From Escherichia phage AV124, in sequence record OR352954: a stretch of 64,000 nt of DNA; one strand, 5' to 3'. Of the stretch, positions 1-50,073 are shown in pieces. Below the pieces are notes generated by a model. The model worked only from the letters and a program-made list of their open reading frames with translations, was not told the origin of the DNA and did not search any database. The first letter of the stretch is position 1. Every line of letters begins with the position of its first letter. The position numbers and the translations under genes were made by a program.

Positions 1-1200
1 AGGCCCGTGCATGACAAGGACTATGTTTGTGTCGGGTACACACACGAAGAGATGATCGCCGCCGGATTTACACAGGTTGGTGCAAATTTTGCAGTATACC
101 TTCATCCTGAAACCAAAGAAGAATACGCACTGGCCCGTACTGAGCGCAAAACGGGTGAGGGCCATACTGGCTTTGAGACCTTCTTCAGCCCGGATGTAAC
201 TCTGGAAGAGGATTTATCGCGTCGTGACCTGACGATCAATGCGATGGCTAAAGACATGGAAACAGGATTTATCATTGATCCGTTCAACGGTATGCATGAC
301 CTGTGCAACAGGACTCTTCGTCATACCACTTCGGCATTCATGGATGACCCATTACGTATCCTGCGACTTTTCCGATTCAAGGCCCAGCTGGGTGATGGTT
401 GGACTGTCGATCATGAGACATATAGTCTCGCTTACAACAACCGTTACCGCCTGGCAGAAATTAGCCCAGAACGCAAATGGAAGGAGATGGAGAAAGCTCT
501 TAATTCCAACAACTTTATGAGTTATGCTTACGAAATGGCCGTGCTTGGTGAACTCCCAGAGCTAGATGCCCTTCATGGTGTAGAGCAACCACCTGAGCAT
601 CATCCAGAGGGTGATGCCTTCATCCACACCCTGATGTGCCTGGAGCAGGCAGACAAAACCTTTTGCTCTCCTCAGGTGAAATTTGCGGTGCTGTGCCATG
701 ACTTTGGAAAGGCGATCACTTTCCGTAAGTACGGTAATCTCCTCGGTCATGAAGAAGCTGGTCTTGATCCTGTGCGGACGCTGTGCAGTCGAATTCGAGT
801 TCCTAACGAATTCAGGGATATTGCACTGTACGTGACAGAGCACCATACTCGTGTGCATTGCATTTTGGGCCGTGGGAATAATAAAGGAATCAAGCCACGT
901 TCCATGATGAAGCTTTTCGAAGCCGCAGGTAACGTGGCTAGTCAGAAGACACAGGACAAGGTGTTTGCCTTAGCAGACGCTTGTTTCTGCGATGCCCGTG
1001 GTCGTGGTGCCACGCACGCAGATAAGGAATACCCGCAAGGAAAAATTCTCCTTGATGCTTTCGATGCGGTTGTAAATACGGACAGCAAGGCGGTATCTTC
1101 AGCAATGCTGGAGAAAGGAAAAAGCGGCAAGGAGATCGGTGAGGCGATCCGTGTTGCACGTATTGATGCAATTCGTAATGTCCTTAAGGAGAGATCATGA
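1..1200 (+). CDS. cca: tRNA nucleotidyltransferase (CCA-adding enzyme) with HD domain; 5' end truncated by window edge
   Basis: Frame open from base 1; translation (DKDYVCVGYTHEEMIAAGFTQVG, YALARTERK, RRDLTINA, HHPEGDAFIHTLM, CHDFGKA) matches head and HD-domain motifs of bacterial class II CCA enzymes; track start at 7 is an internal GTG. Confidence 0.85.
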   Translation, partial: RPVHDKDYVCVGYTHEEMIAAGFTQVGANFAVYLHPETKEEYALARTERKTGEGHTGFETFFSPDVTLEEDLSRRDLTINAMAKDMETGFIIDPFNGMHDLCNRTLRHTTSAFMDDPLRILRLFRFKAQLGDGWTVDHETYSLAYNNRYRLAEISPERKWKEMEKALNSNNFMSYAYEMAVLGELPELDALHGVEQPPEHHPEGDAFIHTLMCLEQADKTFCSPQVKFAVLCHDFGKAITFRKYGNLLGHEEAGLDPVRTLCSRIRVPNEFRDIALYVTEHHTRVHCILGRGNNKGIKPRSMMKLFEAAGNVASQKTQDKVFALADACFCDARGRGATHADKEYPQGKILLDAFDAVVNTDSKAVSSAMLEKGKSGKEIGEAIRVARIDAIRNVLKERS

Positions 1201-1655
1201 AACTTGTAAGTCACGAAGATTTTAACTTGTGGTGGATAAGACGTTCTCCAAAGAATATTATAGACGCGAAGGCAGAGTATGCTCGACTTGTGGCGAGATG
1301 TGATTACCCGGCTTGGGAATTCCTTAAGTTCTTGGAAAAAGAGGCGAACAACTTTAGGACTGCAAATGAAGGGAAAAGGAAATTTCTTGTGTGGAAAAAT
1401 GGAGAGCTTCCTTTCCGCATAGAGAAGGTGGAAATCTTCGATATAACTGAGTATGGGGCTGATCACGCAATCAGTTTTAAAGGAATTTCTTGGGCGACTC
1501 TGTTTGAGAGAACGCTGCTCAACCATGCGTTAGCAAGACTTTTCAACCTGGCAGACAGCCACACGGAAAAAGATGAGAAACTGCTTGAACTTGAATCTTT
1601 CCAACAGACCAGAAATGAACTTGGGAATTGGCTGGAGGAGCAGAATAATGCCTAA
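1197..1655 (+). CDS. hypothetical protein
   Basis: ORF overlapping cca stop by 4 nt (coupled); no recognisable motif. Confidence 0.45.
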   Translation: MKLVSHEDFNLWWIRRSPKNIIDAKAEYARLVARCDYPAWEFLKFLEKEANNFRTANEGKRKFLVWKNGELPFRIEKVEIFDITEYGADHAISFKGISWATLFERTLLNHALARLFNLADSHTEKDEKLLELESFQQTRNELGNWLEEQNNA

Positions 1656-1857
1656 GGACAAAGAGGAGTACACTTACGAGAAACACCATTTCTTTCTGGA
1701 CAAACACGCAGGGAAACAAGTTTGTGCTTGGTGCGGCTTAGTCGCCCTGCGTAACAAGGCCACAGACTGGTGTATCGAAAAAGGTTGTAATTATCGCTTG
1801 CATCCAAGCTACAAGGGTGCTATGTTTAAATACACAGAGTTCTTTAAAAAAGGATAG
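1648..1857 (+). CDS. hypothetical small Cys-containing protein
   Basis: ATG at 1648 preceded by GGAGGAG; track ORF 1573..1857 shortened to SD-supported start. Confidence 0.4.
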   Translation: MPKDKEEYTYEKHHFFLDKHAGKQVCAWCGLVALRNKATDWCIEKGCNYRLHPSYKGAMFKYTEFFKKG

Positions 1858-1861
1858 AAAA

Positions 1862-2173
1862 ATGAATTATCTTGATGACGTTGTACTCCCTGTATGGAGA
1901 TTTATTTTTGATAACGCAGCCTTGTTGGTTATCGTTCTAAGCATCTTGGCTGGATTGTGTGTTGGTATCGTTTATCGTGCAGAGGATGATACAATCTGGG
2001 ATAAGTATGGAATACCGGCTTTTATAGCTGCTATGTGCGGTTTATTCCTTCCGGTGATTATAGGCTTGGGTATTCTACTTCTTCCTGCATTTATATTCCT
2101 CGCCATAACTGCGGCTATCAGTTTGGGGGTGTTCCTTCTGGTTAAGTTTGTGAAGGAAAGGAAAGAAAAATGA
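1862..2173 (+). CDS. hypothetical membrane protein
   Basis: ATG at 1862 after AAGGA; two long hydrophobic stretches. Confidence 0.45.
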   Translation: MNYLDDVVLPVWRFIFDNAALLVIVLSILAGLCVGIVYRAEDDTIWDKYGIPAFIAAMCGLFLPVIIGLGILLLPAFIFLAITAAISLGVFLLVKFVKERKEK

Positions 2174-2385
2174 TTTTTGCCATTATCTATATTATTCTCA
2201 GTATTATCACAGCGGGAGCTGTAATTTATTACACCCTTCGTGAACAAGATTTGCTGAGGGTAGAAGATATTTTAACTTCCCTGATCTGCGGTGTTTTTTG
2301 GTGGTTAACTATTTTATGCGGCGCCCGTGCTTGGATAGGAAAGCATCTTAATAGCAGGACAGTTGTGTATAGGAGAAAGAAATAA
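2170..2385 (+). CDS. hypothetical small membrane protein
   Basis: ATGA overlap with upstream gene; hydrophobic N-terminal half. Confidence 0.45.
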   Translation: MIFAIIYIILSIITAGAVIYYTLREQDLLRVEDILTSLICGVFWWLTILCGARAWIGKHLNSRTVVYRRKK

Positions 2386-2876
2386 TGAAGACACGCATGT
2401 ATTGCGTAGTAAATCAGTATATTGCAGGTATCCATGCCGGAATTCAGTCTGCTCATGCCATGACTGAAGTGTTCTTAGACTACCCACAGCGTAGGAACAA
2501 GGCCAGCAACCTGTTGTGGGACTGGGCGGATAGCGATAAGACGATGATCGTCCTTAATGGTGGCTACCAGTCAAACTTACAGGACCTTTGTTCAAAATTG
2601 CGGTTTCTCAGTGGCACTTACCCGTGGGCATTTTTCTGTGAAGAACACGATGCTCTAAACGGGGCAATGACAGCAGTTGCTGTTGTACTGCCGGAGTATA
2701 TGTACAACCCACAATACATGGAAGTTACGGATCTCGTATATCGACCAGGCCAACTCGTAGGGCCGCAGATTGCTAACCAGTACCGGGACGAGCTGGGCAA
2801 TGTGGTCCACAACTACACCCAAACAGAGAAAGACTTGATCACCATGATCAAATCCTTCCGCCTGAAAGGCGAATAA
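2385..2876 (+). CDS. peptidyl-tRNA hydrolase, Pth2-like
   Basis: GIHAGIQSAHAMTEV and PQRRN...MIVLNGG resemble the GKxAAQCSHAA / IQRRN...KVVVK core of Pth2-family hydrolases. Confidence 0.5.
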   Translation: MKTRMYCVVNQYIAGIHAGIQSAHAMTEVFLDYPQRRNKASNLLWDWADSDKTMIVLNGGYQSNLQDLCSKLRFLSGTYPWAFFCEEHDALNGAMTAVAVVLPEYMYNPQYMEVTDLVYRPGQLVGPQIANQYRDELGNVVHNYTQTEKDLITMIKSFRLKGE

Positions 2877-2877
2877 T

Positions 2878-3252
2878 ATGAATGATGTTCGTGGTGATAC
2901 TCTCAAGGTCGGCGACTCAGTTTATATTTATTTCGGGTACAATGAACTAAAACCTGGTATTGTAAAGCAGATCCGTGGTAAGCTGGCTAAGGTGCTGGTT
3001 GATGCATACCCTAACCGGGAAGACGACGAGAGTCGTTATTCCCTATCTAAGTGGAAACCTGGTGTCTGCATGATCAAGGCTGATGAGCCTACAGGTTGGT
3101 ATCCCGACGAGGTTATCCTACTCTTAGAAGAGATCCGCAGGTTGCGGGATGAGGCCCCTAGTAACAAAGAAGGTTTACCGACTAAACAACTATGCCAATA
3201 CCTCTTGAATTATTGGGATAGAAAACGACCATGTAACCTAGTCTGTTCATAA
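2878..3252 (+). CDS. hypothetical protein
   Basis: ORF directly after upstream stop; no motif. Confidence 0.5.
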   Translation: MNDVRGDTLKVGDSVYIYFGYNELKPGIVKQIRGKLAKVLVDAYPNREDDESRYSLSKWKPGVCMIKADEPTGWYPDEVILLLEEIRRLRDEAPSNKEGLPTKQLCQYLLNYWDRKRPCNLVCS

Positions 3253-3261
3253 GGAGAGATA

Positions 3262-4332
3262 ATGGAAAAGTTTGAAGTGATGCGATGCTATTCCGGTAGC
3301 CTCGCTTATGGCACAAATCTTCCAACTAGTGATGTGGATATTCGGGGTCTGTTCTGCGCCCCACCTAAATTCATCCGCACGCCGTTCTTTAACATCAAAG
3401 AGCAAACCTTGGAAGATGAAGAGGATGGGAAGATTTATGAGTTGACAAACTTCATGAGATTGTTTTCAGAGATGAACCCCAACATCATTGAACTGATGTT
3501 TGTCGATGACAAAGACATTTTACAAACCTCTGAAGTTTATGAATATCTTCGCACAATGGCCCCGGCACTGCTGACCAGTAAGGTAGCGTTCTCCTTCTCT
3601 GGGTATGCGATGGCACAGCTTAAACGTATTCGCGGTCATGATAAGTGGATCAGCAATCCGCAGCCTGAAGAAAAGCCTACGCAAAAAGAGTTCTTCCGAT
3701 TAGTTCACAACTATAGTGAGAACGAATTCCTTGCCGGGGCAATTAAGCACGATCGCTTCATGGAAGCAATGAACAATCTCAACGATATGTGTATCCTTGT
3801 ACCTTATGGGAACGATATCTATGGGGTGATGGAAAACTTCAGTAGCTCAGGGATGTTCAATGCTAACGGTTCAATTCGCCATGTTGACTATCAGCAACTT
3901 TCTGACTCTGACAAGCGGAGAAAACCTGTCTTTATTGTCAAATATTTGGCAGAGGAACACAAACAGGCCAAAGAGAAGCATCGTAACTATTGGACATGGA
4001 AACAGAACCGAAATGAAGTTCGTCACCAGCTCGAAGTTGATTTTGGTTATGACACGAAACATGCGATGCACCTTGTGCGCCTGATGCGTATGGCAGAAGA
4101 GATTCTTTCTGATGGGAAGGTCCTAGTGAAGCGTCCTGATGCTCAGGAACTTCTCGACATCCGGGCAGGTAAGTGGACTCTTGACGAACTGCTCTCTTGG
4201 GCTGATGAGAAGGACCGTTATATTCGTGAGGATCTGTACAAAAAGACACAGCTTCCTAAAATGGCGGATCTTGACCTGTTTGCTAGGGTTCTCATGACGG
4301 CTCAGGATATGTGTTGGAGTAAACTGGTATGA
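3262..4332 (+). CDS. Pol-beta superfamily nucleotidyltransferase
   Basis: N-terminal GS-x9-DVD motif (YSGSLAYGTNLPTSDVDIRG) typical of Pol-beta-fold nucleotidyltransferases; SD GGAGAG upstream. Confidence 0.55.
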   Translation: MEKFEVMRCYSGSLAYGTNLPTSDVDIRGLFCAPPKFIRTPFFNIKEQTLEDEEDGKIYELTNFMRLFSEMNPNIIELMFVDDKDILQTSEVYEYLRTMAPALLTSKVAFSFSGYAMAQLKRIRGHDKWISNPQPEEKPTQKEFFRLVHNYSENEFLAGAIKHDRFMEAMNNLNDMCILVPYGNDIYGVMENFSSSGMFNANGSIRHVDYQQLSDSDKRRKPVFIVKYLAEEHKQAKEKHRNYWTWKQNRNEVRHQLEVDFGYDTKHAMHLVRLMRMAEEILSDGKVLVKRPDAQELLDIRAGKWTLDELLSWADEKDRYIREDLYKKTQLPKMADLDLFARVLMTAQDMCWSKLV

Positions 4333-4541
4333 TTGAAGCACTGGTAGGAATATTTGGTGTTGCATATTCAATCATTGGCGTGATATACTCAATCAGGATG
4401 GAAAAGGACACAGTCCTTAAGCAAATCTATAAAGCCAAGACGGACCGGGACTGGTCTGAAATTTGTTTCACCATCGGTTTTGCATGGCCCTTCGGGGCCT
4501 TAATCCACTATGTTATGAGGAGAAGAAATGCGACAGCTTGA
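4329..4541 (+). CDS. hypothetical small membrane protein
   Basis: ATGA overlap with upstream gene; hydrophobic segments. Confidence 0.4.
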   Translation: MIEALVGIFGVAYSIIGVIYSIRMEKDTVLKQIYKAKTDRDWSEICFTIGFAWPFGALIHYVMRRRNATA

Positions 4542-4704
4542 GTTTATGGGGAGAATGGTAGAACTGGTTTCCGAATGGCAATCAGAATATAAGATGCACA
4601 GGAATCTCTCCGAAGAGCCTGAGAACTGGCCCGACACCAGAGATCAGGAAGATTGGTTGGGTGATTTCTTTGTTTGGCTACAATGTAAGGGGTATACAGT
4701 ATGA
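4528..4704 (+). CDS. hypothetical small protein (58 aa)
   Basis: ATG at 4528 preceded by GAGGAGAAG; below track size cut-off; fills gap between neighbours. Confidence 0.3.
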   Translation: MRQLEFMGRMVELVSEWQSEYKMHRNLSEEPENWPDTRDQEDWLGDFFVWLQCKGYTV

Positions 4705-4937
4705 GCTATGGGCCACTGACCGCAGAGCAGGCTAAGATCCTGCAAGACCGTTATTATGAGCAGCAAGGTATCAAGAAAGTTGTCTGGCCTTCTCCCGGTG
4801 ATGGTGATACCGGAACTGTGAAATGCATGCACGACGCTTGTCCTAATTGTGGTGGCACGGGTGTCAGAAAAGATGGCACTGGTTTATGCGTTCACGGCAT
4901 CTCTTGCCCTTGCCCTAAATGCAGCTTTAAGTGCTGA
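4701..4937 (+). CDS. hypothetical Cys-rich protein (putative zinc-binding)
   Basis: CPNCGG...CVHGISCPCPKCSFKC cysteine cluster. Confidence 0.4.
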   Translation: MSYGPLTAEQAKILQDRYYEQQGIKKVVWPSPGDGDTGTVKCMHDACPNCGGTGVRKDGTGLCVHGISCPCPKCSFKC

Positions 4938-5009
4938 ATCGTCCCTATCTTATATGATAACCCTGTTTTTCATGATAAAATGGATCTATCATTAAGATAG
5001 GAGGCTAGT

Positions 5010-5489
5010 ATGTTTCAAAAGATTGTACGTGAACACCCTATCCTTCGAGAGCACTGGCATACTCTGCTGGAAAAGGGTTTTATAGAAAACTCAAAAGGTT
5101 GCATCGCTCTCGTAAGGGAGCCTGTGACAGAAGAACGAGTTCTCGTCATAAGGGATGCCAAAAACGGCATCCTTTTTTCTATCAAAGTTGGTCGTCTGGA
5201 CGTCACTAGGGGTTCAAATACCATAAGACCAACAACTTACACTTTTCGTGTTGGAGACATGGGGAAGCTCTATCCAGAACATCTGGAAGAGGCCTTTGAT
5301 AGTTATGAAGGGTTCGAAGCCTCTATTCGTGATCTCTATAGATCGTTGGATAGGATTATCAGTGAACACAAGAAAACGCTAGGTGTAAAATACCGAGTAA
5401 AAGACTGGTTCAGAAATTCCAATAACCGCTGGTTTCTCCTAGCGGCAGTTCTCTACGGCCTGTTGACGGTATTTCTGACCTTGCACTAA
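5010..5489 (+). CDS. hypothetical protein with C-terminal transmembrane helix
   Basis: SD AGGAGG before ATG; C-terminal hydrophobic stretch WFLLAAVLYGLLTVFL. Confidence 0.5.
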   Translation: MFQKIVREHPILREHWHTLLEKGFIENSKGCIALVREPVTEERVLVIRDAKNGILFSIKVGRLDVTRGSNTIRPTTYTFRVGDMGKLYPEHLEEAFDSYEGFEASIRDLYRSLDRIISEHKKTLGVKYRVKDWFRNSNNRWFLLAAVLYGLLTVFLTLH

Positions 5490-5501
5490 GAGGAGATTCT
5501 T

Positions 5502-5876
5502 ATGAGAGATCGTCAGGAGTATTATCGTCAGTATGCCGCCCGTCGTCGTGAGATTGATCGTCAGCGGCGTTCTACACCAGAAGGTAAAGCAGAACAACTT
5601 CGTATCCGTCTTGCCCGTATTGAAGCAGAGAAACGCGCTACCCTTCATAGTGAGTGGGATGAGTTTGTCAGGGATGAGGCTGATCACTTGTGTTCTGTTC
5701 GTTGTGAAGATACTGGTATCAAGTGGGAACCAGACCACATGCTACCACTAAGGGCAACCAAAGTATCCGGCCTTAACTGTGGTGATAATATACAGGTGAT
5801 ACCTGCAACTCTCAACAGGAAGAAGAAAAACCGTATGATTTATACCGAAATGAATGAATGGTTGAAAGATGTATAG
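5502..5876 (+). CDS. HNH endonuclease
   Basis: WEPDHMLPL...GLNCGDNIQVIPATLNRKK resembles the HNH His-Asn-Asn core; SD AGAGGAG. Confidence 0.5.
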   Translation: MRDRQEYYRQYAARRREIDRQRRSTPEGKAEQLRIRLARIEAEKRATLHSEWDEFVRDEADHLCSVRCEDTGIKWEPDHMLPLRATKVSGLNCGDNIQVIPATLNRKKKNRMIYTEMNEWLKDV

Positions 5877-5908
5877 AAAAAACCCGGCGATTGCCGGTTT
5901 TTTTTTTA
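5877..5908. terminator. bidirectional rho-independent terminator
   Basis: A6-CCGGC-GATT-GCCGG-T10; stem-loop flanked by A-run and T-run between convergent genes. Confidence 0.65.
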
Positions 5909-31795: not shown

Positions 31796-31964
31796 GTTTA
31801 AATTCCAGAAATCTGAGCTAAACGAGTGTTGGTGGCTTGACACCGCCGACTGTGTTATGGCAGGATACACCTATCGACGGCATCGGGTTTTTGTTGTCTG
31901 TGCGAAAAATCGTGCGGATGCTATTGAATCCATGAAAGAGTTTAAAGAGAGGAGTTGCAAATGA
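31791..31964 (+). CDS. hypothetical small protein
   Basis: Track ORF trimmed to ATG after GGAAGAAG. Confidence 0.35.
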   Translation, partial: AKFKFQKSELNECWWLDTADCVMAGYTYRRHRVFVVCAKNRADAIESMKEFKERSCK

Positions 31965-32473
31965 AGGAGAGCGAAGAGGCATTGCAGGCACTTAAATCTT
32001 CCTTCTCATATGACCCTGAGACAGGTTTGTTTACTTGTATCAATCCTCTCGCTCGTCGTCATTTTGGTAAGGTTGCAGGCACAAAAAGGAAAGATGGGTA
32101 TATACGCCTCGGTGTTAAGGTAAGCGGCAAGCTGAAAATGTTTCTCGCGCATAGGGTTGCCTGGGCTTTTTATCACGGTGTGTGGCCTGATGGCCTTATT
32201 GACCATAAAGACTGGGACAGACAAAATAATAAAATAGACAATCTCAGGGTTGTTGACAAAAGCACAAATAATTATTATTATTCCCCTTGGAAAGGGAAGT
32301 CACAGACAGGTTACAGGGGTGTTAGGATAGATAAAAGGAGAAATCCTCCCAGATATCAAGCTATTTTCTGCGACACTCATCTTGGGATGTTCTCTACAGC
32401 AGAAGAGGCATATGCTTGCTATCAAAAGTATGTTATGAAGACACAGGAGATTATCGCAGATGCTGAAATATAA
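31955..32473 (+). CDS. HNH homing endonuclease with AP2-like DNA-binding domain
   Basis: HRVAWAFYHG...IDHKDWDRQNNKIDNLRVV (HNH) followed by GYRGVRI...YQA (AP2-like). Confidence 0.65.
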   Translation: MQMKESEEALQALKSSFSYDPETGLFTCINPLARRHFGKVAGTKRKDGYIRLGVKVSGKLKMFLAHRVAWAFYHGVWPDGLIDHKDWDRQNNKIDNLRVVDKSTNNYYYSPWKGKSQTGYRGVRIDKRRNPPRYQAIFCDTHLGMFSTAEEAYACYQKYVMKTQEIIADAEI

Positions 32474-32951
32474 AGTTGGTGATTTGATTAAAGCTATTCA
32501 AGATGGTGAAGTAAATGTTTTTGGTCATGGTTGTAATTGCTTTGTGACTATGGGTAGCGGGATCGCCCCGTTGATCAAAGAAGCATTCCCTAAGATGTAC
32601 GCTGCCGACCTGAAAACTGAGAAGGGCGACAAGACCAAGCTGGGAACCTGTACAATGGCCTTTTTGAATGATGGGTCTCTCGTAGGATTTAATCTGTACT
32701 CACAGTACGGTTATAATCGCCGCAAACAGGGTCTCAGGGACCTTGACTACAATGCCCTGTATGATTCAATGGTTGAAATGAAAAAGCTCTTACAGAGCTA
32801 TACAGACGGCCCTATGGACACCTATCGAATCGGGTTCCCTAAACTAGGTGCTGGGCTTGCAGGGGGTGACTGGAATGTCATCGAAGCAATGATCAAATCA
32901 ATCTTCTTTGATTGTGATGTAACTGTGTACATTCTGCCGGAGAAAAAGTGA
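32460..32951 (+). CDS. macro domain protein (ADP-ribose binding/processing)
   Basis: GDLIKA..VNVFGHGCNCFVTMGSGIAPLI and IGFPKLGAGLAGGDW match macro-domain core motifs. Confidence 0.65.
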   Translation: MLKYKVGDLIKAIQDGEVNVFGHGCNCFVTMGSGIAPLIKEAFPKMYAADLKTEKGDKTKLGTCTMAFLNDGSLVGFNLYSQYGYNRRKQGLRDLDYNALYDSMVEMKKLLQSYTDGPMDTYRIGFPKLGAGLAGGDWNVIEAMIKSIFFDCDVTVYILPEKK

Positions 32952-32952
32952 T

Positions 32953-33126
32953 GACAGAAAAGAAAAACCTACACCCTGATACTGCATATGATCGTATTGT
33001 TGCGGCAATTCGTGCAATCGACCCGAAATTGGTAGACGCCCTTGACAGAAAGGATGCCCTCAACGATATTAATGATGCTTGCTATGAAGTTTTATGGCAA
33101 GATTGGATGGGGGATGATGAATGATT
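32953..33126 (+). CDS. hypothetical small protein (57 aa)
   Basis: Below track cut-off; start overlaps upstream stop, stop overlaps next start. Confidence 0.3.
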
Positions 33127-33330
33127 GAACTTAAAGACGGCATGGTGGCCCACACCAAGAAGATCGACCTTCACGTTGGTAACACAGTGTTTACATACAA
33201 TGCACCACGAGGAAAGAGCTTTGTTGTTCTTCTACTTGGCGTAGAGAAGCCGGATGGTCAAGGAGAAGGTATTCAGATTGACGAATGGCTGAATAGTCGT
33301 GGCTGGAAGCTGGAGGGTCCTGATGAGTAA
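33121..33330 (+). CDS. hypothetical protein
   Basis: ORF in array. Confidence 0.4.
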   Translation: MIELKDGMVAHTKKIDLHVGNTVFTYNAPRGKSFVVLLLGVEKPDGQGEGIQIDEWLNSRGWKLEGPDE

Positions 33331-33541
33331 ATCGGTTTTTGTCATCTATGACACTGTTGACAAATGCCTCTGGAACCACAAAGCCAAGATTGGGTGGATT
33401 AGTTCCGGCGCGGCGAAGAACGCCTGGAATCTTGCCCACGCAACCTGGAGTGGGAAGCAGTATTTTGATGACCAGCAAAGATATGTAGTTCTTGAGCTTT
33501 CTGGCGGACACGTTAGTAAATTATTTGAGGAGAATAAATGA
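33323..33541 (+). CDS. hypothetical protein
   Basis: Track ORF trimmed to ATG after GGAGGG. Confidence 0.4.
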   Translation: MSKSVFVIYDTVDKCLWNHKAKIGWISSGAAKNAWNLAHATWSGKQYFDDQQRYVVLELSGGHVSKLFEENK

Positions 33542-33894
33542 CCATGAATGAATCTGTAGATTCTGCAACCACCCCAATGATCGGTGGTAAGATTTACGCT
33601 GGCGTTATCATCAACGCCCGTCCGTTTGTGGAGGTATGGCCCCGTTGTATTTGTGGTTATCTGGCTGGCAAGGATCATCACAACCGAGGGTTTGATAATG
33701 GCCCTATTCGTACCTCCACGGTGCAAAGCCTGCTGCTGGAGAATGGTAAGCTATTCGCCATCACACTGAATAGCGCTTATCGCCTAGAATCTGTAGATCT
33801 GGCAGCTTTTCTTAATTGTCCTGGGTGGTTCGATGACCTTGATAATTTGATCACTCAGGCTGTAGCTCCTAAAAAGGGGGTGTCCATTGACTAA
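33538..33894 (+). CDS. hypothetical protein
   Basis: ATGA overlap with upstream gene. Confidence 0.45.
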   Translation: MTMNESVDSATTPMIGGKIYAGVIINARPFVEVWPRCICGYLAGKDHHNRGFDNGPIRTSTVQSLLLENGKLFAITLNSAYRLESVDLAAFLNCPGWFDDLDNLITQAVAPKKGVSID

Positions 33895-34930
33895 ACCAAT
33901 TAAATACCCAAGCACCGCACAGTTCCGTCAGGTTATCCGCACCATGCATGATAAACTGACGTTCGACGGTCTTGATGAAGAAGGCAATATCAAGCGTAAG
34001 GTTTTGCCACCGGACGCATACTTGATCCCGTACATTGGTACGGTTAAGCTCCACGGCACAAATGGTAGCGTGGTATTCCACTCTGAGGATGAAGTTGTCT
34101 TCCAGTCCAAAGAGCGTGTCGTTACTGTAGGTGACGATAACAATGGCTTCGCGGCTTTCATGTCTCGAAAAGACACCTCAGAGCTGCTTTCCCAGGTTAA
34201 ATACCTGTGTGAAGTCAATGAAGTTGAGTTCCAGTTCCCGGTTGAAATTGCTGGTGAATGGGCTGGTCGCGGCATTCAGAAAGGTGTTGCCATCACTGAA
34301 GTAGAGCCATTCTTTGCTATCTTCCGTGTGGCTGTAGGCCGGGATGAGGCGACGGATACCCTCAACTGGCTACCACCAACGTTCCAGTTTGGAATGGGAT
34401 TGCCGGATGCTCGTATCTACAGTATCCTTGACTTCGGTTACTGGATGGCTAATATCCCATTCAATGAGCCAGAACTTGTCCAGAATGACTTGGCAGAACT
34501 GACTCGTGAAGTGGAAAACAAATGCCCGGCAGGTAAGTTCTTTGGCGTAGAAGGTATCGGTGAAGGCATTGTCTGGTCTCCAAAAGATCCTGAGCTTTCT
34601 AAAATCTCTGGTCTGTGGTTTAAAGTCAAGGGTGATAAACATTCTGTATCCAAAGTTAAGACCCTGGCAGCGATCGACCCAGAACGCCTCGCAAGTATGC
34701 GTGAGTTCGTTGAGTACGCTGTGACGGAAGCACGTCTTGAGCAGGGTGTTAGCGAAGTCGGTCTTGACCAGACTAAGATTGGTGAATTCATTGGATGGAT
34801 TAACCGAGACATCAACAAGGAAGAGGGTGATGTTCTGGAAGCCAGCTCCATGACCATGAAAGATGTTGGTAAGTTTATCAGCAACAAAGCTCGTGCATGG
34901 TACATGACTCGTCTGAGTGAGGAGGGCTAA
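33887..34930 (+). CDS. RNA ligase, Rnl2-like
   Basis: Nucleotidyltransferase motif I KLHGTN, EIAGEWAGRGIQKGV (cf. T4 Rnl2 FGEFAGPGIQKNV), motif IV EGIVW, motif V WFKVKGDK. Confidence 0.75.
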   Translation: MTKPIKYPSTAQFRQVIRTMHDKLTFDGLDEEGNIKRKVLPPDAYLIPYIGTVKLHGTNGSVVFHSEDEVVFQSKERVVTVGDDNNGFAAFMSRKDTSELLSQVKYLCEVNEVEFQFPVEIAGEWAGRGIQKGVAITEVEPFFAIFRVAVGRDEATDTLNWLPPTFQFGMGLPDARIYSILDFGYWMANIPFNEPELVQNDLAELTREVENKCPAGKFFGVEGIGEGIVWSPKDPELSKISGLWFKVKGDKHSVSKVKTLAAIDPERLASMREFVEYAVTEARLEQGVSEVGLDQTKIGEFIGWINRDINKEEGDVLEASSMTMKDVGKFISNKARAWYMTRLSEEG

Positions 34931-45933: not shown

Positions 45934-48300
45934 ATTAAAGGTCTGTTTATACTGGATAACGAGGCCGATGGCCTGTTAGACGAAGTAACTAAGTACCATT
46001 GTACTTTGCTGAAAGAATTCGGAGTCAACAACTGGAACCTGTTTTTAGACCCCGCACACCCTGAATATGAAAGCGCTGTAGCCTTTGCCAGGAGCAAGAA
46101 GGATGCTAATCTTACAATTCGTTCATACGACGAGCTGGAAAGCTTCCTGAAGACTTGTAGAGCCATTGCGTGTCACAACCTGTTTGGTTATGACCTGCGC
46201 CTGTGGAAGAAGTTATCGGGCATTGAATATGATATGTTCAAAGACCCGAAGTGCATGGGGACGATTGGGGATACACAGGTAAATCTCTACGACACCCTCT
46301 CTATGAGCCGTGTGCTTTATCCTGACCGTCCATTACCTAACGGTTGCCCTGACTCTGTTCTTAACCCGGTAACCGGGAAGCGAGACCGTGTAGGTCCTCA
46401 TGGCCTGTTGGCCTGGGGCTACCGCGTAGCAAACAAGAAAGTTCAGATCGATGACTGGCGTAACCAACCCTTGTGGGAATACGTTAATCGTGTCTGGGAA
46501 GACGTTTTAATCAACGAGTTAGTATGGCAATCCCTGATCGATGAATCTACAGGTGCTCGCTGGCCTGATGACAAGCAGTTCATGTACAAAGATAAACCGG
46601 AAGGGATGCGGCAGATCAACTGGAAGAACGCGCTACGCCGCCGTATGTTGACTGATTACCTGATGATTGAGCAAGAAATTCAGGGTGTTCCATTCAATAA
46701 GCATGAAGCTGAAAAGCTGAGAGACCGTATTGATGTAATGATGAAAGAGATTGAGGAAGAAGTAGAACCTCAACTCCCGCTCAAAGAGATGACGAAGTCT
46801 CAACAGCCAAAATTCCCTGCTAATCCTTTTGATGGTGCAGGAAGAATTTCCCATCACGGGTGGAATTGGTTAGAATACAAGCTGGGATATCCAGTTAATC
46901 GTGAAGCGCTGGAATTCAAAGGTCCACCGAAGACGGCGTTTAAAGGTAACGGTGATGTAAGTGCAGCAGGGGAAAGATACTGTATCCAGAATGGTGTTGA
47001 AGACCCGGCAGCGATGCCAGACTTCATTAGAAGCCAGATAAAGAAAGAGAATACCCTTGTCCCATTGCCACCAGACCTAATGGAAAAGGCAATTGCCGAT
47101 CTTCGTGCTGGAAAGATGCCAGACCTGATGGTTCCGATGAAGATCTCGAACCAGGACGACATCAAGAAGTACCTGATCCGCGATGCGGGATGGAAACCAA
47201 CGCTCTGGCGTGTTAAAGATGTGACGAAAGACCAGTTCAAAAAGACCCGCGATGATGCGGAGGTTGATGGTCTGGTGCGTAAGTACATCGAAGAACTTGG
47301 AGAGTCCGAGTATAAATCTCTGATTCTTGAGCACTTAAATAATAGTGACGCAAAGTTCAATATCTCGGAAAACAAGTTCGACCATCGTCATGGTTCTGAT
47401 CGTGTTTACGAGGAGGTCTTCAAGAAGTTCCGACGCAAAGCTCGTCAACTGCCGACTTCACCACAGTTGAAGGATAACTTTGGCAAGCTGTGTCCTAACC
47501 TTGAAGTTATCGATGTTCACTTGGCTAAACAGATTGTTAAGTGGCTGTCATTACGTAACCGTCGTTCTGTTCTCGACCCTATTGACGAGGATAAAAACGA
47601 TACAGGGCTGTTGAATCATCCTCGCCTGGCGATTGATGGAAAACTTCCAGCTCGTTTCTCTGGTATCACTAACACCGGGCGTTGTAAGCACACCATTTGT
47701 GCAAACATGCCTAAGCCAGATCCTAAGGTGTTGTTGGGTAAAGAGATGCGTGGTCTCTGGGGTGTGACCGATGAATATTACCAGGTCGGTATCGATGGTT
47801 CTAACCTCGAAGGTATGATCGCGGCATGGGGTGCATATCAGTTCGATGGTGGTGAATACCTCCGTATCATGGAAAGTGGAGATGCCCACGCACGAAACGC
47901 CGAGGCATACACCAAAGCTTCTGGTACTCTGGTAACGCGTAACGGTGGTAAAGGGGTAACCTACGGCATCATGTATGGTGCTCAGGCAGCTAAGATTGCA
48001 GCAATGCTTCACATTTCCCTTGACAAGGCACAGGCGGTAATCGATGCTTTCTGGGATAGTAACTTTGGTTTGAAAGGTCGTAAGGAATGGCTTGAAAACT
48101 TCTGGGAAGCAACGGGTAAACGTTATATCCCTGGTCTCGATGGTCGTAAGATTTGGACCCGTTCTAAGCACTCTCTTCTGAATGCTTTCCAGCAAAACGG
48201 TGGTGCATCTCTATTCGATCTGGTTGGTATCCTGCTTCACTGGGAACTGATCAAACGTGGCTGGTATGATGATGACGTTCGTCGCCTGATTTACTACCAT
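45934..48300 (+). CDS. DNA polymerase, family A (T7 gp5-like), 5' exon; apparent non-canonical start
   Basis: Alignable to T7 gp5 (LDNEADGLLDEVTKYHC exo I region, GPHGLLAWGYRV, motif B KGVTYGIMYG); frame open from 45922 with no ATG/GTG/TTG before conserved exo I motif; exon ends at YYH just before motif C. Confidence 0.75.
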
Positions 48301-49071
48301 AAATAACATTGTGGCTTTGTGAGGTAACTCACATCGAATAACTCCTTTAATTGCTGGGAGGCTAAGGTTGATATTCACTCGATAATAGAGTAAAATACAA
48401 CTATGTTAATCAGCAGCGAAGAGGATCAATGAAAAGTGTAAACTACCACGGATATGTGGTTTACGAAGACGGAACCATTATCGGAAGGCGCGGGAAACCG
48501 ATGCAAAAGGTAGATAATGGGAGGGGCTACCTAATTGTAAGTCTCTACCTTAATAAAAGAACAACGACAAAAGCTGTGCATGTTTTAGTGGCTGAGTGTT
48601 TCGTTCCCAACCCGGATAACCTCCCAGAGGTTGACCACAAGGATGGTGATAAGACCAACAACCACTACACCAACCTCCGCTGGGTAACAAGAGGTAAGAA
48701 CATAGAACATTGCTACACGTTGGAAGGTAGAAGTGCAACAGGTATTGCCAATGCAAACAGTAAGTTGTCAGAGGGAGAAGTGGAGAAAATCTGCTACCTC
48801 TTGCAGGAAGGCTTTAGTCAAGCTGCCATCCGAGACATGGGCTACCCATACGGAACAGTTAGGGCCATCAAGCAGAGACGACAATGGCTGCATATATCAT
48901 CTTCGTATCATTGGTCTTAACGTTCAGAGGCCAGCCGAAAGGCGTAGACGAGCGAGTGCCGTCGAAATGGGGAGCATCCTGAAAAGGATGGTGATATGGT
49001 CCGATCCTACGTGAAAACGTATGGCAACACGTAATGGTGTGGGCGAGATTAACGACCTCGCTAAACTTTTG
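48301..49071 (+). mobile_element. putative group I intron in DNA polymerase gene, carrying HNH homing endonuclease
   Basis: Polymerase frame stops at YYH-K-stop; in-frame C-terminal continuation DEYQ resumes at 49072 and restores motif C HDE; upstream exon ends in T, intron ends in G; internal ORF has own SD. Confidence 0.6.
48429..48920 (+). CDS. HNH homing endonuclease (intron-encoded)
   Basis: EVDHKDGDKTNNHYTNLRWVTRGKN HNH core; SD GAGGA before ATG. Confidence 0.7.
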   Translation: MKSVNYHGYVVYEDGTIIGRRGKPMQKVDNGRGYLIVSLYLNKRTTTKAVHVLVAECFVPNPDNLPEVDHKDGDKTNNHYTNLRWVTRGKNIEHCYTLEGRSATGIANANSKLSEGEVEKICYLLQEGFSQAAIRDMGYPYGTVRAIKQRRQWLHISSSYHWS

Positions 49072-49419
49072 GATGAATACCAGCTCCAGGTTCCTAAGAA
49101 ATACCTGAAGAAGTGGGAGTTCGACACCCTGGAAGAGGCAACAGCTTTCGTCAAAGAATGGGAAGCAAAAGGCCGGGTATTTGACGGACATGAATGGAGA
49201 AAGGCCGTCAAAGATGACAACGGTGATAAAGTCAAGGATGCGGAAGGCAATACAGTCTACGAAGGTATTTTCGGGGACGATGGTAAAATCCACATCCAGT
49301 ATTGCCCTGTTGGTGAAATGGTCGTAAGATGTGTAGAGAAGGCCGCTCGTATCATGGGCAGTCCTGTACATATCACAGGGGCATATCTTACGGGCGCCAA
49401 TTGGGCGCAATGTCATTGA
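49072..49419 (+). CDS. DNA polymerase, family A, 3' exon (motif C to C-terminus)
   Basis: DEYQ...TLEEATAFVKEWEAKGRVFDGHEW...ANWAQCH aligns with T7 gp5 C-terminus (HDEIQ...RTEEIAQVV...WVGDHW...PNWAICH). Confidence 0.65.
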   Translation, partial: DEYQLQVPKKYLKKWEFDTLEEATAFVKEWEAKGRVFDGHEWRKAVKDDNGDKVKDAEGNTVYEGIFGDDGKIHIQYCPVGEMVVRCVEKAARIMGSPVHITGAYLTGANWAQCH

Positions 49420-49437
49420 TATATAAGGATATTTTAT

Positions 49438-50073
49438 ATGGAATTATGGAAAGACATCCCCTCTACGGAGGGGAGATACCAAGTAAGTAATTATGGAAGA
49501 ATAAAAAGGCAACGGTATTCTCGCATAAACAGCAATCAAGCAGCAAGTTGGGAGCAAGTATATGAAACAAAGATATTAAAGCCTTCAAAGGACACACACG
49601 GTTACCTACAAGCTTGTTACCTTGTGGAAGGAGAGAGGACTATAGCCCTGGTCCATAGGCTTGTTGCAGAAGCCTTCCTTGCACCGCCAAGTCAAGAGTT
49701 GATAGATGAATGTATGAAGGCTGGTCACAAAGTGGTTCTTGTCAACCACAAGGATGGAAACCCACTTAACAACCATGTTGACAACCTTGAGTGGTGTACT
49801 CCTTCTTACAACAATGAGTATAGTCCCCAAGATTATTCAAATAGGTCTGGGGATAACTGTAAACATGCGGTTCTTAAAGAATCTGATGTTGACAAAATAC
49901 TGGAACTACGTGGTAAAATGAGTCAGCAGGCCATCGCGGATATGTTCGATGTGAAACAGATCACTATCAGCAACATTTTCACCGGAAGGTCTTGGTCTTC
50001 TTATACCGGAATACCTCGCAAAGAGCGTAACAAAGGAAAACGTGCAGCTAAGACCAAACTGTTATCACAATAG
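49438..50073 (+). CDS. HNH homing endonuclease (free-standing, NUMOD-like N-terminus)
   Basis: IPSTEGRYQVSNYGRIKR N-terminal module; HNH core VNHKDGNPLNNHVDNLEW. Confidence 0.7.
   Translation: MELWKDIPSTEGRYQVSNYGRIKRQRYSRINSNQAASWEQVYETKILKPSKDTHGYLQACYLVEGERTIALVHRLVAEAFLAPPSQELIDECMKAGHKVVLVNHKDGNPLNNHVDNLEWCTPSYNNEYSPQDYSNRSGDNCKHAVLKESDVDKILELRGKMSQQAIADMFDVKQITISNIFTGRSWSSYTGIPRKERNKGKRAAKTKLLSQ

Follow-up and report, generated by a model that had tools for sequence, protein, structure and literature searches.

The first 4,332 nucleotides of a 64,000-nucleotide stretch of DNA from Escherichia phage AV124 (sequence record OR352954; the whole 64-kb stretch is referred to below as the window) carry three genes on the plus strand. 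These are cca, for a CCA-adding enzyme that is cut by the window edge, a gene for a 163-amino-acid (aa) protein resembling peptidyl-tRNA hydrolase 2 (Pth2), and rlaP, for a 356-aa nucleotidyltransferase (NTase) of the polymerase beta (Pol-beta) type. A reading made from the letters of the window without database searches (the sequence-only reading) had placed the three genes at these coordinates, and family matches, fold and motifs bear out both the identities and the positions. The genes are read here as probably contributing to the maintenance of the tRNA pool during infection.

Comparison of positions 1–4400 with phage genomes returned 35 matching records, 30 of them with at least 80% query cover, at 88–90% DNA identity. 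Every record belongs to Vequintavirinae, within Mydovirus or close to that genus, for example Klebsiella phage vB_KpnM_KB57 (KB57) and Proteus phage Mydo. Judged by these matches, the window is that of a Mydovirus phage of the Klebsiella type, with DNA about 89–90% identical to KB57 and Mydo. Along its full length the window is collinear with KB57, starting at position 101,409, passing the end of the record and continuing to 28,402, and a metagenomic contig (L039) is 99.93% identical in DNA to positions 1–5531. The orthologues in KB57 (KB57_152, KB57_157 and KB57_159) and in Mydo (gp119, gp115 and gp113) share order, spacing and orientation with the genes of the window at 89–90% DNA identity. 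The window represents another isolate or a variant at species level, and has local insertions elsewhere. RefSeq labels these orthologues tRNA nucleotidyltransferase, hydrolase and nucleotidyltransferase, naming neither PTH2-like nor RlaP.

The three genes belong to a dense run of co-directional open reading frames (ORFs) on the plus strand at positions 1–5876, several of whose stop and start codons overlap (Table 1). The block that holds the cluster is closed by a bidirectional terminator-like GC hairpin at 5884–5897, with T-runs on both strands, in agreement with the terminators annotated in phage Mydo.

Table 1. Coordinates of the cluster, its neighbours and the RNA ligase gene in the window
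Feature	Position	Strand	Evidence and remarks
cca, class II CCA-adding enzyme with C-terminal HD phosphohydrolase domain	1..1200	+	cut at codon 20 by window edge
152-aa ORF, start overlaps cca stop codon	1197..1655	+	phrog_19588 E 1.3e-84; gene call in L039 and L040; no match in Pfam, NCBIfam or PADLOC
69-aa ORF	1648..1857	+	phrog_7020 E 1.3e-41; gene call L039 9264-9473 = window 1648-1857; no match in Pfam scan
103-aa ORF, long hydrophobic stretches in translation	1862..2173	+	phrog_22743 E 2.9e-56; gene call L039 9478-9789
71-aa membrane protein	2170..2385	+	phrog_14512 'membrane protein' E 1.6e-27
Pth2-like hydrolase (putative), 163 aa, PTH2-fold core and C-terminal extension of ~55 residues	2385..2876	+	
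DUF7205 protein, 124 aa	2878..3252	+	PF23835 E 1.1e-43; phrog_2112
RlaP-family Pol-beta nucleotidyltransferase, 356 aa	3262..4332	+	PF10127 55.5 bits; phrog_388 E 4.5e-79
RNA ligase, Rnl2 type	33887..34930	+	PF09414 E 6.5e-08; phrog_548 'RNA ligase' E 2.9e-77; 29.5 kb from rlaP

The three protein families

The cca frame is open from the first base of the window. Its product matches the PolyA_pol head domain PF01743 (E 2.2e-12, 47.9 bits against a cut-off of 23), whose N-terminus is lost at the window edge, the HD domain PF01966 (23 bits against a cut-off of 22) and phrog_2244 (E 2e-135). The best NCBIfam match is PRK10885/NF008137, the enterobacterial 'multifunctional CCA addition/repair protein' (model positions 18–406 of 409), with a score of 385.6 bits that lies under the equivalog cut-off of 451 and is lowered somewhat by the roughly 19 residues missing from the query. 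Alignment with Cca of E. coli K-12 (b3056) is collinear from end to end, with the head, body and HD architecture and the motifs retained, at 45% identity over 408 columns. Class II nucleotidyltransferases carry a motif A made of GGxVRD followed by DxD, and a motif D of the form EDxxR. DKD (DxD) and EEDLSRRD (EDxxRRD) are present in the translation from the window, LCHDFGK of the HD motif lines up with LCHDLGK of E. coli, and GGAVRD of motif A lies just upstream of the window edge, where contig L039 (99.93% identical) shows it. The edge removes no more than the first 19 codons; the full gene, found in L039 and in a second contig (L040), encodes 418 aa beginning MQDKKIYLVGGAVRD. The frame is therefore intact in L039, and the upstream disruption that the sequence-only reading had considered damaging to its proposal was not found. 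The same reading had called the enzyme near-host-like, a description that suits its architecture and not its distance in sequence: given the 45% identity to E. coli Cca, the likeness is one of shared architecture rather than of a gene copied recently from the host. In one relative (L008, an IMG/VR contig of 145,759 bp) cca is divided between two ORFs, at 3785–4030 and 4027–5031, for which a frameshift, a pseudogene or a sequencing error is possible.

The 356-aa protein is assigned to the RlaP family (PF10127, 55.5 bits against a cut-off of 23) and is a predicted RNA 3′-end NTase. The Pfam family is carried by all 120 listed homologues, among 1,385 homologues in all. Invariant positions among 33 homologues comprise G12 S13, D24 x D26, D55, E60 and E77, which include the Pol-beta signature of G[SG] plus DxD, with D55, E60 and E77 as candidates for the third carboxylate. 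In the AlphaFold model (predicted local distance difference test score 90.6) a Pol-beta core is followed by a helical C-terminal domain, and a Foldseek search with this model matched many viral 'nucleotidyltransferases', including that of Rheinheimera phage Barba19A. The T4-like homologues align to residues 6–122 only, at about 27% identity.

The name of the RlaP family refers to an association with RNA ligases. A 2025 preprint reported that two Pseudomonas members, PfRlaP and PaRlaP, add one or two nucleoside monophosphates to the 3′-OH end of RNA, with a preference for the 5′ half of a cleaved-tRNA mimic, and that RlaP partly rescues the aminoacylation of a tRNA lacking one anticodon-loop nucleotide; viral members such as T4 NrdC.11 fall in separate sequence clusters (PMC12776372). 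With these bacterial enzymes the phage protein shares PF10127, the GS plus DxD Pol-beta core and the helical C-terminal domain (PMC12776372). A PDB sequence search with the phage protein gave nothing significant, and the Foldseek matches in the PDB included no RlaP-family structure, the PfRlaP crystal structure among those absent. These PDB fold matches were weak and partial: ANT(4′) at E 4e-3 with template modelling (TM) scores of 0.21–0.29, a minimal NTase (MNT) at E 0.09 and CD-NTases at E > 2. CD-NTase, MNT and aminoglycoside NTase were rejected as assignments on the weakness of these matches and on the PADLOC scan, which identified no defence-system family in the cluster proteins apart from a trivial HD/Cas3 similarity in Cca. 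The sequence-only reading had asked which NTase family the ORF represents, and the answer is RlaP rather than CD-NTase or minimal NTase.

Fold comparison assigns the 163-aa protein the alpha/beta fold of PTH2. PDB sequence searches with the protein and with its family profile returned nothing significant and recovered no Pth2, so that only fold comparison ties the window protein to Pth2. In an alignment of 37 homologues (34–87% identity), residues Q21, H24, W47, T53 and E86 are invariant. Sixteen of these 37 family members match the Pfam PTH2 model (PF01981) individually at E ≤ 0.05 (best 1.4e-06), PTH2 being the only family that recurs. A transitive alignment, leading from the window protein through family member P0110 to the Pth2 structures 1wn2 and 2zv3 by pairwise steps with weak E-values (0.13–0.21), places Q21 and H24 at the Q and H of AQxxHA, W47 at the conserved Trp, T53 at the Lys-Lys position and E86 at the Asp of RDAG; by the same route, His17 seems to occupy the position of the Lys that precedes AQxxHA. 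Mutagenesis of Sulfolobus solfataricus Pth2 has reportedly located the active site at the RDAG Asp and this Lys. The family comprises at least 2,546 clusters (50% identity, E ≤ 0.001) without a Pfam model of its own, mostly from phage records and viral contigs, and ranges over Vequintavirinae, KVP40-like phages, Aeromonas T4-like phages, jumbo phages of the GAP32 and 121Q types, and others. One homologue is named 'aminoacyl-tRNA hydrolase' in UniRef. NCBIfam gave no match for the Pth2-like protein, for the DUF7205 protein or for the NTase.

Gene linkage and tRNA genes in related phages

Throughout Vequintavirinae the order of cca, the Pth2-like gene, the DUF7205 gene and rlaP is fixed, which could be simple descent. 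The DUF7205 gene keeps its place between the Pth2-like gene and rlaP in loci L008–L017 and is absent at the loci outside this subfamily. Among the latter, the 84.6-kb genome of Barba19A carries an uninterrupted trio of cca, the Pth2-like gene and a gene for a PF10127 NTase, Vibrio phage SRILMA has the Pth2-like gene directly after cca, and an IMG/VR contig (L029) combines cca, the Pth2-like gene and an RNA ligase gene. At four loci (L019, L022, L026 and L030) the Pth2-like gene lies within an array of 7–12 tRNA genes, and at two of them, L026 and L030, rlaP follows 0.7–1 kb downstream. The Pth2-like proteins of the linked loci outside Vequintavirinae are only 32–48% identical to one another. 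Linkage of cca, the Pth2-like gene and rlaP thus recurs, and it is not universal.

Other arrangements were seen around the same genes. One Vequintavirinae-like IMG/VR contig (L012, 93,589 bp) has cca, the Pth2-like gene and a fragment of the DUF7205 gene, with no RlaP match within 6 kb downstream, and rlaP may have been lost or replaced there. A hydrolase of the HD_4 (RelA/SpoT) type adjoins the Pth2-like gene in L020, L027 and L032, and a P-loop kinase of the AAA_33 family is encoded 1.3–1.9 kb upstream of it in the T4-like contigs L021, L023 and L031. A class II NTase-like ORF located 4.7 kb upstream of the Pth2-like gene in L025 was rejected as an instance of linkage, being too distant from Cca.

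Analysis of the window with ARAGORN detected no tRNA gene, an Rfam search of the whole window gave no match, and a degenerate T-loop pattern occurred once, the number expected by chance. The window lacks tRNA genes because of where it is cut: KB57 has 25 tRNA genes by ARAGORN at 60.9–67.6 kb, about 34 kb upstream of cca and beyond the span of the window, and an array of this kind is common to all the close relatives listed, the best matches to the cluster included. The absence of tRNA genes, which the sequence-only reading had pointed out, is real for the window and uninformative; the genus has a conserved array of about 25. CCA is encoded in 22 of the 25 KB57 tRNA genes, and a need for Cca in maturing phage tRNAs without CCA was rejected on this ground. 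An implication of the encoded CCA is that the phage Cca is more likely to act in end repair than in maturation, as in E. coli. The unusual calls within the KB57 array are those at L004 12865–12934, 14182–14259, 14536–14610 and 17540–17612. Two of them are tRNA-??? with abnormal anticodon loops, and CCA is not encoded in one tRNA-???, in Leu-taa and in a second Met call. No more than 16 of the 25 are annotated in RefSeq, and these include a pseudogene.

Probable maintenance of the tRNA pool and competing readings

The three enzymes would probably maintain the tRNA pool by combining de-esterification, restoration of 3′-end nucleotides and rebuilding of CCA, alongside the RNA ligases of the phage. 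The pool in an infected cell would consist of host tRNAs and the phage's own set of about 25, encoded elsewhere in its genome, and would be damaged or sequestered by host ribotoxins, exonucleases and stalled translation. In the first step, the PTH2-fold protein would cleave the ester that holds a peptide or an N-blocked amino acid at the tRNA 3′ end, releasing tRNAs that have dropped off ribosomes or have been cleaved on them. In the second, the HD phosphohydrolase domain of Cca would clear phosphorylated ends and the NTase head would rebuild a trimmed CCA tail. RlaP would then restore one or two nucleotides at a 3′-OH end left short of bases after cleavage, and lastly the phage RNA ligases would reseal the break, together, in relatives, with a kinase–phosphoesterase–Rnl1 cluster. 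The general role in tRNA protection or repair, which the sequence-only reading had already suggested, is plausible, as it agrees with the biochemistry of RlaP (PMC12776372) and with the recurring linkage of the genes to each other and to tRNA arrays. The encoded CCA of most KB57 tRNA genes and the presence of further RNA-repair genes, namely the Rnl2-type ligase gene in the window and a repair cluster in KB57, count in favour of the maintenance reading as well. Toxins that target tRNAs form a major class of antiphage defence, which phages answer with tRNAs of their own and with repair enzymes.

RlaP, the CCA-adding enzyme, PTH2 and RNA ligases have been described as RNA-repair and ribosome-rescue factors of jumbo phages, which are proposed to replace nucleotides that have been lost, rebuild CCA and release peptidyl-tRNA (Iyer et al., 2021; PMC7824862), and several jumbo-phage genome papers mention peptidyl-tRNA hydrolase and tRNA nucleotidyltransferase together. 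The gene set is therefore already known in phages, and its interpretation as tRNA maintenance has already been proposed for jumbo phages (PMC7824862). The present locus agrees with that set in the three enzyme families and their proposed roles. In contrast to it, the genes belong to a phage of about 145 kb (judging from relatives of 142–150 kb) and are neighbours here, as in Barba19A and SRILMA, whereas they lie far apart in the jumbo phages checked. In itself the locus adds little, being orthologous to annotated Mydovirus genes whose enzyme families are already listed as repair or rescue factors. The addition is a modest one, namely the recurrence of three-gene adjacency in non-jumbo phages and the association with tRNA arrays. 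The 'hydrolase' and 'nucleotidyltransferase' of the Mydovirus group can now be named as PTH2-fold and RlaP proteins, and the recurring adjacency in divergent phages together with placement in tRNA arrays makes a concrete three-enzyme module that is open to biochemical tests and to tests against tRNA-directed defences.

Another comparison is the repair of the tRNA anticodon loop by T4 Pnk and Rnl1, likewise a phage counter-measure that restores cleaved tRNAs. In KB57 a metallophosphoesterase, an Rnl1-type ligase (PF09511), a cREC domain protein of the type that processes cyclic phosphates (PF20274) and an AAA_33 kinase are encoded side by side at 73.4–76.3 kb (L004 23454–26312), and by its predicted products this cluster is a complete healing-and-sealing set for RNA repair. 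T4 differs in having a single bifunctional Pnk and no Cca. A further difference is one of target: if the three enzymes of the present cluster are active at all, they would work on 3′ ends and acyl esters and take no part in healing and sealing.

Several points weigh against the tRNA-maintenance reading, and some of them lend themselves to other explanations. The activities, the substrates and the order of the steps are all inferred, and the tRNA array of the source genome, like its Rnl1 cluster, is expected from the relatives rather than seen in AV124 itself. For RlaP, the Pfam match covers the NTase core only (model positions 23–141 of 249), and the RNA-ligase neighbourhood typical of the family is missing: the nearest ligase gene in the window, at 33887–34930, lies 29.5 kb from rlaP and shares no operon with it. 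The bacterial genes, in contrast, are found in RtcB–RtcA operons (PMC12776372). The neighbours of rlaP in the window are cca and the Pth2-like gene, and the RNA ligase gene merely co-occurs in the genome. A dedicated pathway for repair of the acceptor end, formed by cca, the Pth2-like gene and rlaP and distinct from T4-type anticodon-loop repair, would account for rlaP sitting beside cca and not beside an RNA ligase gene. In such a pathway the PTH2-fold esterase would first strip an acyl, peptidyl or other adduct from the 3′ end, RlaP would restore bases upstream of CCA, such as the discriminator base, that Cca cannot replace, and Cca would then rebuild CCA. If this is true, the module would be directed against a host defence in which tRNA 3′ ends are trimmed or blocked. 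This more specific scheme is quite improbable.

For the Pth2-like protein, the match to the Pfam PTH2 model, at E 0.007 and 17 bits, falls short of the 23-bit cut-off, Glu stands where the RDAG motif of Pth2 has Asp, an acidic residue nonetheless being retained, and the C-terminal extension of about 55 residues is a peculiarity of the phage family. In comparison with archaeal and eukaryotic Pth2 (PF01981; 1wn2, 2zv3), the phage protein shows 18% identity and these departures, and it forms a separate family. It might hydrolyse another ester. A stronger form of this idea holds that it is no peptidyl-tRNA hydrolase, and that it removes another 3′-terminal or nucleotide-linked adduct or binds tRNA ends non-catalytically. 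The second-best structural match, 2gax, a PTH2-fold protein of unknown function, can be counted in its favour along with the score, the Glu and the extra C-terminal domain. Nevertheless, conservation is complete or almost complete at the signature positions of Pth2, namely the Q and H of AQxxHA, the Trp, the Lys-Thr and the Asp position with its acidic residue, and the informative gene contexts are always tRNA-related, which leaves this alternative doubtful.

The linkage itself has exceptions. In the window, cca and the Pth2-like gene have four small genes of unrelated kinds between them, and the DUF7205 gene separates the Pth2-like gene from rlaP. At 10 of the 22 loci outside Vequintavirinae no cca, RlaP, RNA ligase or tRNA gene lies within 6 kb of the Pth2-like gene, and there are further loci with a single tRNA gene only (4 of the 22) or a distant NTase-like ORF only (1 of the 22). 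Distances of tens of kb separate two of the genes in jumbo phages; in fHe-Yen9-04 they are placed at 38 kb and 88 kb. The intervening ORFs, the unlinked loci and the jumbo-phage distances suit the idea of three independent genes that stand together by descent, the block being a nucleotide and RNA metabolism region of Vequintavirinae without a pathway. On the other side, direct adjacency recurs where the proteins have diverged to 32–48% identity, and cca lies immediately upstream at 3 of the 22 loci, against fewer than 0.3 expected by a rough estimate that assumes random positions in genomes of 100–300 genes. Independence of the three genes accordingly appears a poor prospect.

The tRNA arrays bear on a last alternative, a general boost to translation by routine CCA turnover and peptidyl-tRNA recycling, serving a large tRNA set and a heavy late load with no link to ribotoxins. 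The embedding of Pth2-like genes in phage tRNA arrays and the roughly 25 tRNA genes of the genus are what such a role would lead one to expect. It is known, moreover, that peptidyl-tRNA drop-off limits how well phage lambda grows in pth(rap) hosts and that E. coli Cca acts in routine repair of CCA ends. A boost of this kind is unlikely all the same, because the tRNA genes of the phages encode CCA, Cca and Pth1 are available from the host in any case, the sole known activity of RlaP suits damaged ends, and the healing-and-sealing cluster of the relatives has no housekeeping role in bacteria. Maintenance of the tRNA pool against damage, as set out above, is the reading retained.

Other possible RNA-processing genes and extra DNA in the window

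A second group of genes with a possible connection to RNA ends is located farther into the window. An ORF for an HNH_3 endonuclease (31955–32473) abuts one for a Macro-like 'phosphatase' (32460–32951; PF01661 21.5 bits, phrog_335), and a small 'methyltransferase' ORF (33538–33894) is followed by the Rnl2-type RNA ligase gene. The region 31955–34930 may be a second cluster for the processing of RNA ends.

In comparison with KB57, the window carries about 1.77 kb of extra DNA at 48300–50070, at the 3′ end of the gene for a family A DNA polymerase (46006–48306). This extra DNA contains two ORFs for HNH homing endonucleases, one at 48429–48920 (HNH_3) and the other at 49438–50073 (NUMOD4 plus HNH_3).

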